From IMG/VR virus record IMGVR_UViG_3300029508_000035: a stretch of 7,006 nucleotides of DNA. One strand, 5' to 3'. The DNA is from a virus. Its lineage: Duplodnaviria > Heunggongvirae > Uroviricota > Caudoviricetes. Both the position numbers and the translations under genes were made by a program. A model generated the notes under the pieces. That model had not been told where the DNA came from. It did no database searches and saw only the letters and a list, made by a program, of their open reading frames with translations. Positions 3,508-6,954 of this stretch are shown here, in pieces (within the stretch, counting starts at the first letter, position 1; the number at the start of each line of letters is the position of its first letter).

Positions 3508-4470
3508 GTGAGTTCAGGTGCAAAGGTTATCTCGGCATTTATCCGGGAGACGGTTGCAGGCACTACGCCAGCAAGTGGTGACTGGAGTTTATTAAAACGC
3601 ACAAGCTGGGGAGTAAAACCCACCCAGAATAAAGGCGAAAATAATGAGATTGGTGGCTCCCGGATGGCTCAGGGGGCGACGCCTGGCACTGTGGATGTCG
3701 GCGGTGATGTTGGTACCAAATTTCGCTGGGGTCAACATGATGATTTTCTTGCATCCTGTTTCGGCGCGGAATGGTCAGGCGATTCTCTGACAATGGGGAA
3801 TGAGCGAATAACATTTTCTCTGGCGACCTATGCGTCCGATGTCGGAATTGCCTCTGTCGTCAGAGGAGCGCAGGTTGGCTCATGGAAAATGCAGATCCCT
3901 AACGACGGCGATATTACAGCGACCGTAACCTTTGCCGGACTGGACTGGGAATCAAAGGCCGATGATACGAATTTTATCAAAGGCGAACCTGTGGATAGTG
4001 CAGGAAAGCTACGTTATTCGTTTAAGGAGGTTTCAGCAGTAAGCCTGAATGGTGTTGCCGGAGGTAACGGTTTTTGTATCGACAGTTTTGATATTCAGTT
4101 CGATAACAAACTCCAGACACAGCGTTGTATCGGGACTGGCTCGCCTTATGCAGGAGCAAATATTCCGACTACTTTTACACCGTCCGGTACGGTGACGCTT
4201 TCATGGTCTAAAGCCGCGTGGGAAATCTGGAGTAAAACACTGACTGGAGAAACAGTTCCGTTCAGCTTCACGCTTTCGAATGGAGAGGGGGCATACACTT
4301 TCAGTTTCCCGAAGGTTCAGGTGTCAGGTGAATGGCCTGATGGGGGTAATAGCGACATTATCCAGGTTCAATTGAGCATTACCGCAGCAGATGAAGCACC
4401 TACGATAACCAGAAAAAAAAATTCCCCGGCTGCCGTGATCGCAAAAGCCAGTGCTGAGGCGATTAGTTGA
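3508..4470 (+). CDS. Major tail (tube) protein
   Basis: 320-aa ORF with GTG start at 3508 preceded by AGGAGG (3497-3502). It lies between the neck genes and the G/GT chaperone pair, the canonical position of the major tail protein. Gly/Thr/Ser-rich, beta-type composition. Stop TGA at 4468-4470. Confidence 0.65.
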   Translation: MSSGAKVISAFIRETVAGTTPASGDWSLLKRTSWGVKPTQNKGENNEIGGSRMAQGATPGTVDVGGDVGTKFRWGQHDDFLASCFGAEWSGDSLTMGNERITFSLATYASDVGIASVVRGAQVGSWKMQIPNDGDITATVTFAGLDWESKADDTNFIKGEPVDSAGKLRYSFKEVSAVSLNGVAGGNGFCIDSFDIQFDNKLQTQRCIGTGSPYAGANIPTTFTPSGTVTLSWSKAAWEIWSKTLTGETVPFSFTLSNGEGAYTFSFPKVQVSGEWPDGGNSDIIQVQLSITAADEAPTITRKKNSPAAVIAKASAEAIS

Positions 4471-4518: not shown

Positions 4519-4980
4519 ATGAGGTTATGGATGTTTATTCTTAATCAGAAAATTATCATTGGTGGAGAACGCTGGTTTACGCCAATGAAGGACTTAAAAC
4601 CTGTAGACGGGTTAAAACTGTTGGTGGCAAGCAGCGATAACGATCAGTATCGCTCCCGTAATGCATTAATCCGTCGCCACATTGAGAAAATGGATGCCAG
4701 TTTGCACGTCGGAACGAAGGAGTTTGATATTTCAAAGGTTTCCGAGGTGGATTCTGTTGATGATTTACTCATTGATAATGCCGCTCGTTATCTGCTGAAA
4801 GACTGGAAAGGGGTTGGTGAACTGGTTAATGGTGTTGAGGTTGCACTGGAATATACGGCAGAACGAGGGATCGCGCTGCTTAAGCAGAATCCAGAGTTGT
4901 ACTGGCAGATCCTTGCAGAAGCAGCCAGCATCGCCCAGGGTAAAGAGCAGCAGAAGCAGGATACGATAAAAAAGCCATAG
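4519..4980 (+). CDS. Tail assembly chaperone, lambda gpG-like
   Basis: 153-aa ORF with ATG 4519 preceded by AGGGGGA (4504-4510). An A_AAA_AAG slippery heptamer lies two codons before its stop, and the -1 frame stays open for a further ~100 codons. This is the lambda G/GT arrangement located just upstream of the tape measure gene. Confidence 0.7.
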   Translation: MRLWMFILNQKIIIGGERWFTPMKDLKPVDGLKLLVASSDNDQYRSRNALIRRHIEKMDASLHVGTKEFDISKVSEVDSVDDLLIDNAARYLLKDWKGVGELVNGVEVALEYTAERGIALLKQNPELYWQILAEAASIAQGKEQQKQDTIKKP

Positions 4981-5288
4981 CTGCCCAGCGGTGGTTATCG
5001 GAGTTCGGGGGAGAAAGGGGGGAAAAGGCAAGATGGAAGCGAGAAAAACTCAGGTTGCCACCGATACCGGAACCAGAAATAGACCCGGTGCTTAAGGAGT
5101 TGTTGTACGCCTATTCGGTAATATCCCGTGCCCGACGTTATGCTGGAATGGCTGGGGTGCCTTTGCCTTTATCTCTGACAGAGATAAATGAATATTTAGC
5201 CACTCATCCGGTATTGATTGAGCGCGATGAATTTGAAGCAGTGATCTTTGCACTGGATGACCAGTATTTTCAGGAGCAGTGTGTGTAG
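4519..5288 (+). CDS. Tail assembly chaperone G-T fusion produced by programmed -1 ribosomal frameshift (lambda gpGT-like)
   Basis: The -1 frame is open from 4944 to the stop TAG at 5286-5288. The slip site A_AAA_AAG at 4968-4974 is in the X_XXY_YYZ register of the G frame. Predicted fusion reads ...DTIKK|AIAAQRWLSEFGGERGEKARWKREKLRLPPIPEPEIDPVLKELLYAYS...QEQCV (~256 aa). The track's free-standing 5055..5288 ORF starts at a TTG with no RBS, so separate initiation is unlikely. Confidence 0.6.
4968..4974 (+). other. Programmed -1 frameshift slippery heptamer A_AAA_AAG
   Basis: Sequence ataAAAAAGcca: codons ATA-AAA-AAG in the G frame give A_AAA_AAG, the same heptamer used by E. coli dnaX. It lies in the 37-nt overlap between the G frame and the open -1 frame. 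Confidence 0.65.
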
Positions 5289-5453: not shown

Positions 5454-6931
5454 ATGGCAGAGCAAACCTCGCGTCTCGCAATAATTATTGATAGCACTGG
5501 AGCGAAAAATAATGCTGACAATCTGACCTCCTCATTAGTCAAAATGACGCAGGCTGGGGAAACTGCTGCAAATAGCGCAGGGAAAGTGACTAAGGCAACA
5601 GAAGATGAGAAGAACGCGCTCGCAAAATTAAAAGCAGCTATTGATCCAGTTGGTGCCGCAATTGATACTGTCGGTCGACGCTATTCTGAATTAAAGAAAT
5701 TTTTCGATAAAGGGCTTATTGATAAAGAAGAATATGAATTTCTTGTCCGTAAACTTAATGAAACCACAGAGGAATTGAGCGGGGTTGCGCAAGCGCAGAG
5801 AGAAGCCGAGAAGGCCGGAAAACTTGCTGCCGCCCAGCAGGAAGCGCAGGCTCAGGCCTTTCAAAGAATGCTGGACAAGATCGACCCTCTGGCTGCGGCG
5901 CTAAGAAATCTTGAACAACAGCATGATGAACTTAATGCTGCGTTTGCATCCGGGAAAATAAATGGTTCTCAGTTTGAGAATTATAGCCGAAAAATACAGG
6001 AAACACGGCGAGAGCTTACCGGAGAGGCTCAGGCAGAGCGAGAAGCAGCAAAAGCGCATGATGAACAGGTTGTTGCTTTGCAACGTCTGATTGCTCAACT
6101 TGATCCTGTCGGAACTGCTTTTAATCGTCTGGTAGAACAACAGAAACAGCTCAATGAAGCAAAAGCTAAGGGGATGCTTTCTCCTGAAATGTATGAGGAG
6201 CTTTCTGGAAAACTTCGTGCTATGCGGAGTGAGCTTGAGGTTACTCAATCACAATTAAGCAAAACCGGAATGTCGGCAAAACAAACGGCTTTTGCTATGC
6301 GCATGTTGCCTGCACAAATGACGGATATTGTTGTTGGGTTGTCCACTGGTCAGTCGCCATTTATGGTGTTAATGCAGCAGGGCGGCCAGCTAAAAGATAT
6401 GTTCGGTGGGATTGGCCCGGCGATCAAAGGTGTAGGTTCTTATGTGCTGGGATTAGTTAATCCTTTTACCCTAGCCGCAGCAGCCGTTGGGGTCTTAGGA
6501 CTGGCTTACTATAAAGGCTCTCAGGAGCAGGACGAATTTAATAAATCTCTTATTCTTACCGGAAATCAGTTGGGGACAACCAGCGGGCAATTGGGCGATA
6601 TAGCTCAACGTGCCGGGAATGCGGCTGATTCGACAACTGGTGCTGCGGCGGCAGTATTAAATCAGCTTGTGCGTTCGGGAAAGGTAGCGAGCAGTTCGCT
6701 GGAGCAAGTGACGACAGCGATAGTAAAAACGAGCGAAGTAACAGGAATATCAACCGAACAACTGGTTAATGACTTCAATGAAATTGCAAAGGATCCTGTC
6801 AGTGCCATATCAAAACTTAATGATCAGTACCATTTTCTGACACTTGCGACTTATAACCAGATTAAGGCGCTACAGGATGAAGGGAACCAGCAGGAGGCCG
6901 CCCGCATTGCGACAGAAGAATACTCATCCTC
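5454..6931 (+). pseudogene. Tail tape measure protein, lambda gpH-like, 5' portion; disrupted by an IS1 insertion at 6931/6932
   Basis: ATG 5454 with AGGAG at 5440-5444. From memory, residues ~275-390 match the conserved N-terminal region of lambda gpH: [39 protein letters not shown] vs lambda [39 protein letters not shown], and [12 protein letters not shown] vs DFNKTLVLSGNQ. The frame runs into IS1 sequence at 6932 and stops at 6951-6953, after only ~493 gpH-like codons, whereas a full tape measure is typically >800 aa. Confidence 0.8.
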
Positions 6932-6954
6932 GGTAATGACTCCAACTTATTGAT
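6932..6954. repeat. IS1 terminal inverted repeat (IRR, 23 bp)
   Basis: GGTAATGACTCCAACTTATTGAT matches the IS1 right inverted repeat as I recall it. It directly abuts the tape measure coding sequence at 6931. Confidence 0.85.

Follow-up and report, generated by a model that had tools for sequence, protein, structure and literature searches.

[quoted passage not shown] The consensus of this unit is (q)rLlxqIDPvxxaLxrLxxqqxxLxxaxxxGxIxxxxF/YxxYsxKIxxxRxxL. Relatives within the TMP_2 family were found to carry 0, 1, 2, 3, 4 or 5 units and to be otherwise collinear, and the likeliest role of the unit appears to be to add length, as a coiled-coil module, to the tail ruler and perhaps also to the conduit formed after ejection. 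The module is previously undescribed and is widespread in a well-known class of proteins, and its significance is modest. The tuning of tape measures by tandem repeats is already an established idea, and the described cases, largely from phages that infect Gram-positive bacteria, involve 11- and 18-residue aromatic repeats or homorepeats. What is new here is a longer and different module in the lambda-type family, including ynaA of E. coli K-12, its copy number ranging naturally from 0 to 5.

The tape measure gene and its surroundings

The window (7 kb) corresponds to the late region of an E. coli prophage of the lambdoid type, in which the tail tube gene (3508-4467, a Pfam match to Phage_tube_2) is followed by a frameshifted chaperone pair and then by the TMP gene, a lambda-type context. 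The capsid gene (478-1710) carries the RefSeq label 'P22 phage major capsid protein family', and the modules of the window are mosaic, a P22-type capsid being joined to a lambda-type tail module (tube, G/GT and TMP). The features that concern the TMP are as follows.

4531-5288, plus strand: tail assembly chaperone pair, G/GT analogue, from its open reading frames and its site directly upstream of the TMP gene, as in lambda G/T
5454-6931, plus strand: tail tape measure protein gene, first 493 codons only (Pfam TMP_2 at 6e-82; homology to SPF_0923)
5454-5621, plus strand: conserved N-terminal leader, residues 1-56, common to homologues with 1, 3 or 4 units
5622-5861, plus strand: unit 1 (U1), residues 57-136 (core 57-118, linker 119-136), period 80 residues, HMM match 4e-33
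5862-6080, plus strand: unit 2 (U2), residues 137-209, period 73 residues, HMM match 6e-34
6081-6266, plus strand: unit 3 (U3), residues 210-271, adjoining TMP_2, HMM match 6e-33
6252-6866, plus strand: TMP_2 domain (PF06791), residues 267-471, including MRMLPAQ at 6294-6314 and a hydrophobic segment
6932-7006, no strand assigned: one end of an IS1 element (GGTAATGACTCCAACTTATTGATAG...; GGTAATGACTCC...), which interrupts the TMP gene at codon 493/494

In the chaperone pair the G frame runs from 4531 to 4980 and the -1 frame has no stop between 4944 and 5288, reading ...DKKAIAAQRW.... At 4968-4974, 4 nt ahead of the G-frame stop (4978-4980), there is a canonical slippery heptamer, A AAA AAG, and -1 slippage at this site would yield a GT-type fusion. 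Phage_TAC_18 gave a weak match on the T part of the pair. In the record of Salmonella phage SPF_0923 the same region is annotated as two separate ORFs and not as a fusion.

The TMP region shows 99.7% nucleotide identity to the TMP gene of SPF_0923, which encodes 1,077 amino acids and is followed by genes labelled 'minor tail protein' and 'tail assembly protein'; intact 1,077-residue versions are present in SPF_0923 and in Shigella and E. ruysiae prophages. The window protein is a lambda-type tape measure (TMP_2 / tape_meas_lam_C family). Its TMP_2 domain (residues 267-471) scored 274.8 bits against a cut-off of 30.2, and the intact homologue contains TMP_2 (267-471), TMP_4 (671-748) and the lambda-type C-terminal domain Tape_meas_lam_C (PF09718, 91.4 bits; TIGR01541, 218.7 bits against a cut-off of 104.75). 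The window copy lacks this C-terminal domain because IS1 interrupts the gene. Homology to phage TMPs stops at 6931 and matches to IS1 start at 6929-6932, and RefSeq annotates an 'IS1-like element IS1A family transposase' in the best-matching genome. The element creates a false stop at 6951-6953, so that the predicted C-terminus reads ...SSVMTPTY where intact proteins read ...SSSMIQRTNQ.... A reading made from the sequence alone had taken the resulting 499-residue ORF (5454-6953) as the protein, and this must be corrected, since the gene is cut at codon 493 and the end of the ORF is false. Because of the interruption at 6932 the TMP gene in the window is dead and this prophage copy cannot make tails. 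The same region is found without IS1 in other E. coli genomes.

Similarity and age of the three units

The sequence-only reading had proposed three successive units of one pattern in the TMP N-terminus, and repeat detection bore this out. Smith-Waterman scores were 122 for U1/U2, 91 for U2/U3 and 78 for U1/U3, in alignments that had few or no gaps and kept the register over 52-59 residues. Composition-preserving shuffles (2,000) scored about 25-29 ± 5, giving z values of 17.5 (U1/U2), 13.8 (U2/U3) and 10.4 (U1/U3), and none of the 2,000 reached the observed score. As a stricter control the units were compared with all 70-residue segments from the rest of the same helical protein (median score ~26); the best match found elsewhere in the protein was 39-50, and therefore coiled-coil composition does not explain the similarity of the units. 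On the intact protein a three-copy profile gave exactly three matches, each with an E value of ~1e-33. The three peptides that had been singled out earlier (residues 63-121, 143-201 and 216-267; 5640-5816, 5880-6056 and 6099-6254) were rightly located, but the limits of the units needed adjustment, as the true start lies 6-7 residues upstream of the 'IDP' and the periods are 80 and 73 residues.

Pairs of units share 32-35% amino-acid identity, 43-47% nucleotide identity and 30-35% identity at third codon positions, the last being near random. Repeat finding and alignment of the DNA of the units gave only chance matches of 14-24 nt and no significant repeat. The duplications are therefore old, in agreement with what had been proposed from their nucleotide divergence, and a recent duplication was rejected.

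U1 (5640-5950) also shows a weak similarity to the C-terminal end of TMP_2 (residues 217-307 of lambda gpH; BLASTP E 0.009, Smith-Waterman score 64), with TMP residues ~625-695 noted alongside. This end of TMP_2 likewise shows a D-P...L...Y...G pattern (in lambda ...TTDPTSGLTAMARQF...SGDEAG), and U1 and the C-terminal part of TMP_2 may, from this resemblance, share an origin.

Predicted structure of the unit

An AF2 model of residues 1-299 from 16 sequences had low overall confidence (pLDDT 55), and the same pattern was seen in each unit: a helix of 21 residues that begins at the Pro, a loop of five residues containing the Gly (KGLID, SGKIN and KGMLS in the three units) and a long helix reaching to the next Pro. 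In U1 these are helix 65-85, loop 86-90 and helix 91-143, and in U2 helix 145-165, loop 166-170 and helix 171-216. A second model, of U3 with the start of TMP_2 from 68 diverse sequences, reached a pLDDT of 80.7 in the best model and 88-95 over residues 219-258, with helix 218-238, loop 239-243 and helix 244-283. The unit region was all-helical in the AF2 prediction. We accordingly picture one conserved module of about 57-62 residues that would begin at I/L-D-P, its first helix being joined to a longer second one through five loop residues at an invariant Gly.

The hydrophobic periodicity was 3.4 in helix A and 3.5 in helix B (crude Fourier analysis of the mean profile of 27 representative units), a heptad spacing that, by this crude test, would fit a coiled coil. 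Covariation between helix A and helix B (MI-APC, 307 distinct units) was mixed, the pairs partly fitting one register (i+j ~60-65) and partly not. Foldseek searches of the PDB with both AF2 models found nothing significant (best E values 4.1 and 0.44), the weak matches being generic long helical hairpins such as those of SipB, colicin E3/E9 and integrase coiled coils.

Curated families and known tape measure repeats

No Pfam or NCBIfam model covers the unit. The nearest candidates all fell below their cut-offs and were rejected, as was membership in any other curated family: SHOCT (PF09851) gave 22.0 bits to U1 against a cut-off of 27 and did not match U2 or U3, TMP_3 gave 20 bits against a cut-off of 41, and among 65 diverse units only three matched SHOCT at E ≤ 0.01, again below the cut-off. 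The core of the unit (L..ak..G.Id..eY..l..kL) does have the pattern of SHOCT and the SHOCT-like families PF08044 and PF20612, to which it gives weak matches, namely a conserved Gly that is flanked by two short amphipathic helices and has an acidic/aromatic pair after it; the unit is, however, twice as long, and its conserved I-D-P start has no SHOCT counterpart. SHOCT itself has no established function (PMC3581485). Some co-mentions of SHOCT and tape measures in the literature proved to be unrelated. For annotation, the unit region merits a domain model of its own, lambda should be treated as the 0-copy form, and the window copy as a pseudogene.

The units share with tandem repeats of TMPs in general a significant internal similarity and a copy number that differs among collinear homologues. 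The 11- and 18-residue Trp/Phe repeats of TP901-1 and the mycobacteriophages (Belcaid 2011, Mahony 2016) likewise are tandem, lie in a helical TMP and vary in number, and in TP901-1 the removal of short aromatic repeats shortens the tail proportionally (PMC5099701). The units differ from these in having a period of 63-80 residues (80 and 73 in the window), a helix-loop-helix form, a D-P start, a Gly loop and a position N-terminal to TMP_2, with no Trp and one conserved aromatic residue per unit, and the sequences are unrelated.

Comparison with lambda gpH

Lambda gpH (PDB 8iyk) belongs to the same family, with TMP_2 and Tape_meas_lam_C domains, and the order of G/GT chaperone and then TMP is alike in lambda and the window. 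Residues 57-850 of gpH are collinear with residues 270-1077 of the intact protein (28% identity, E 5e-76). Ahead of TMP_2, in contrast, gpH has only a 56-residue leader and no unit, and its total length is 853 residues as against 1,077 in the intact protein. MRMLPAQ lies at residues 281-287 here and at 69-75 in gpH. This exact shift of 212 residues agrees with the ~220 estimated in the sequence-only reading, which had also credited gpH with a single comparable unit before MRMLPAQ; the latter was not upheld, as the unit profile found nothing before MRMLPAQ in gpH, and gave only a weak partial match of 6.6 bits to the Gly-centred core at residues 416-439. By profile search, lambda gpH is thus the 0-unit form.

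Copy number among relatives

The number of units and the length of the TMP in representative relatives were as follows.

Klebsiella phage ST11-VIM1phi8.2: 1 unit, TMP of 965 aa
Klebsiella phage ST974-OXA48phi18.2: 1 unit, TMP of 960 aa
PDB entry 9l9p: 1 diverged unit, TMP of 957 aa
HK639: 2 units, TMP of 1,024 aa
Erwinia phage Gungnir39: 2 units, TMP of 1,121 aa
Window type (SPF_0923): 3 units, TMP of 1,077 aa
Klebsiella phage 5 LV-2017: 3 units, TMP of 1,213 aa
P0042, P0121 and one Shewanella prophage: 4 units
P0126: 5 units

A count of three in every homologue, which the sequence-only reading had named as the result that would make the three units ancestral and no expansion, was not what we found, the counts running from 0 to 5. 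In proteins with the same leader and the same TMP_2, MRMLPAQ lies at residue 128, 281 or 361, corresponding to 1, 3 and 4 units, and the steps of 153 (80 + 73) and 80 residues equal the unit periods. Gain and loss would then have involved whole units (+80 and +153 residues), with unequal recombination as the presumed mechanism.

We also surveyed 80 prophage TMPs, one genome per species. About half had no detectable unit. Most Enterobacterales and many Pseudomonas had one, always adjoining TMP_2, while three were found in E. coli, Shigella, E. ruysiae and Citrobacter and four in a Shewanella prophage. A profile search of 1.84 billion representative proteins yielded 464 clusters at E ≤ 0.001. 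TMP_2 was present in 111 of the best 148 of these 464 clusters, preceded by 1-5 units, and in these 111 the last unit almost always ended where TMP_2 starts. The unit next to TMP_2 (the U3 position) is present in nearly all unit-bearing homologues.

Related repeats also occur outside this family. An unrelated TMP of the PhageMin_Tail family (P0125) has ~13 nearly identical 63-residue copies in exact period at residues 792-1610, with a three-unit (189-residue) super-period that points to very recent amplification. P0140, a TMP-sized protein with no PhageMin_Tail match, has ~6 nearly identical copies of a related 63-residue D-P/Gly motif at residues 92-469, and these repeats scored 41.9 bits to SHOCT with the copies summed.

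In a distance tree of units, U1, U2 and U3 of E. coli each grouped with the Klebsiella units of the corresponding position, and the extra unit of the 4-unit form was a diverged sister of U2. Positional orthologues of E. coli and Klebsiella are about 53-82% identical. Each unit has its orthologue at the same position in Klebsiella and Citrobacter prophages, and the triplication is therefore older than the split of these prophage lineages. We envisage the units as ancient tandem duplicates in what would be the head-proximal, N-terminal part of the TMP, directly ahead of TMP_2.

Protein length and the probable role of the units

Among 149 TMPs of 830-1,350 residues, total length rose by 50 residues per unit (r 0.54, p 1e-12), in a regression that ignores phylogeny and uses representatives biased towards multi-copy proteins. 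The median lengths for 0, 1, 2, 3 and 4 units were 945, 994, 1,068, 1,095 and 1,122 residues. The part from TMP_2 onward changed by -5.6 residues per unit in the same 149 TMPs, which was not significant. The units are a net addition to protein length, the direction being clear despite a sample that is related by descent and enriched for multi-copy proteins, and no shrinkage downstream would appear to compensate for them.

On balance we think that the units probably serve as a length cassette of the lambda-type TMP, an add-on to the tail ruler. Katsura and Hendrix reportedly showed in 1984 that the length of the TMP sets the length of the tail. By the ruler principle each TMP residue accounts for about 0.15 nm. 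If the 214 residues of units and linkers are extended, the tail would be ~30 nm longer than that of a 0-unit lambda-like phage, with ~7 more tube rings; that the extra residues are read out as tail length is itself inferred. If each helix-loop-helix stayed a hairpin within the tube, a unit would add only about half as much as an extended one. Length change mediated by repeats has been described in TMPs with 11-residue units (Belcaid 2011, PMC3271669), and TMP deletions in TP901-1 shorten tails in proportion (PMC5099701). The ~13 exact-period copies of P0125 look as copies of a length cassette would. Our literature search found no description of the module and no tail lengths for the phages of the 0-5 series. 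This series offers a natural test of whether the N-terminal end of lambda-like TMPs is measured as tail length, and it also bears on whether the conserved motif does something more specific.

Conservation of the motif argues against a pure spacer, since I-D-P, the Gly and the aromatic residue are kept across Enterobacterales, Pseudomonas and Shewanella, which is more than a spacer needs and suggests a specific contact. A specific contact therefore stays a live alternative or additional role. In its full form, the unit would serve mainly for specific docking and not as a spacer, with extra copies altering binding stoichiometry or avidity, and the candidate partners are the upstream G/GT chaperone, the tail terminator or, at the head-proximal end, the leading end of the DNA. 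We consider this unlikely as the main explanation, despite several observations that agree with it: D7 and G30 are at least 90% conserved and P8 is invariant across 65 diverse units, the position beside TMP_2 is fixed, the positional orthologues of E. coli and Klebsiella are about as conserved as the TMP_2 domain itself, and the TMP gene directly follows those of the chaperones. The G domains of lambda are also said to bind gpH (Xu, Hendrix and Duda, 2014). Against docking, lambda and many relatives build tails without any unit, and copy number varies freely between 0 and 5 and reaches ~13 in a different family of TMPs.

A broader form of the docking proposal is one we hold to be quite unlikely. 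Here the unit would be an uncurated, widespread D-P/Gly helical hairpin domain, distantly SHOCT-like, that acts as a countable docking site in several unrelated TMP families, and its copy number would set partner loading or conduit geometry and not length. If true, SHOCT-like motifs would for the first time have a defined function.

Lambda gpH* forms a hexameric channel that spans the periplasm, with its N-terminal residues 1-319 (hydrophobic at 116-140) tentatively placed at the outer membrane (PMC12617516), and therefore the units could also act after ejection, lengthening or modifying the trans-envelope conduit of the TMP across the periplasm, beside the hydrophobic segment of TMP_2. The units do lie immediately N-terminal to the region homologous to the 1-319 segment. 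We nevertheless find a mainly post-ejection role improbable: the width of the periplasm is similar among hosts and yet the copies number 0-5, and the published outer-membrane placement is explicitly tentative. Such a role is compatible with that of a ruler and does not exclude it.

The last alternative, that the similarity is merely the generic resemblance of charged, Ala/Gln/Glu-rich coiled coils, in keeping with weak matches to SMC, Rad50 and many coiled-coil families and with the low complexity of the linkers, is effectively refuted by the shuffles (z 10-17), by unit scores 2-3 times that of the best other helical segment of the same protein, by an in-register alignment anchored on residues that are not those of a coiled coil (D-P, G, aromatic), and by the large profile search, in which the motif was found almost only in TMP-sized proteins among the 1.84 billion representatives.

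Distribution in E. coli and the Rac remnant ynaA

The three-unit N-terminus was found in 1,071 of 5,426 complete E. coli genomes (~20%), including ynaA of K-12. We saw no copy-number polymorphism within E. coli: in 1,063 of the 1,071 a single unbroken match covers at least 80% of the query, and these apparently have three units. The units are too diverged in DNA to recombine and all 1,063 copies apparently have three, so that copy number is no longer adjusted in this lineage. The suggestion that the three units might be an expansion special to this locus could not be sustained, since they are fixed in the Rac-type TMP of about a fifth of complete E. coli genomes and have orthologues in Klebsiella and Citrobacter.

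In K-12, the Rac gene ynaA, a pseudogene labelled 'phage tail length tape measure family protein', has the same three units, with 99.9% nucleotide identity over 867 query bases. It is truncated by a deletion after ~311 codons, whereas the window copy reaches codon 493 before being cut by IS1. As ynaA is an N-terminal fragment of the same gene with all three units, the window represents a fuller Rac-type prophage. In K-12, ynaA (L088:5001-5933) is followed by remnants of lom and IS5 and by stfR.

A few E. coli database proteins depart from the common form. P0037 (-37 residues) and P0034 (-25 residues) show apparent in-frame deletions whose ends are marked by short strings that resemble each other (AAKA/EAKA and AMR/AMR), and P0083 is an apparent chimera in which an unrelated N-terminus is joined inside U3.
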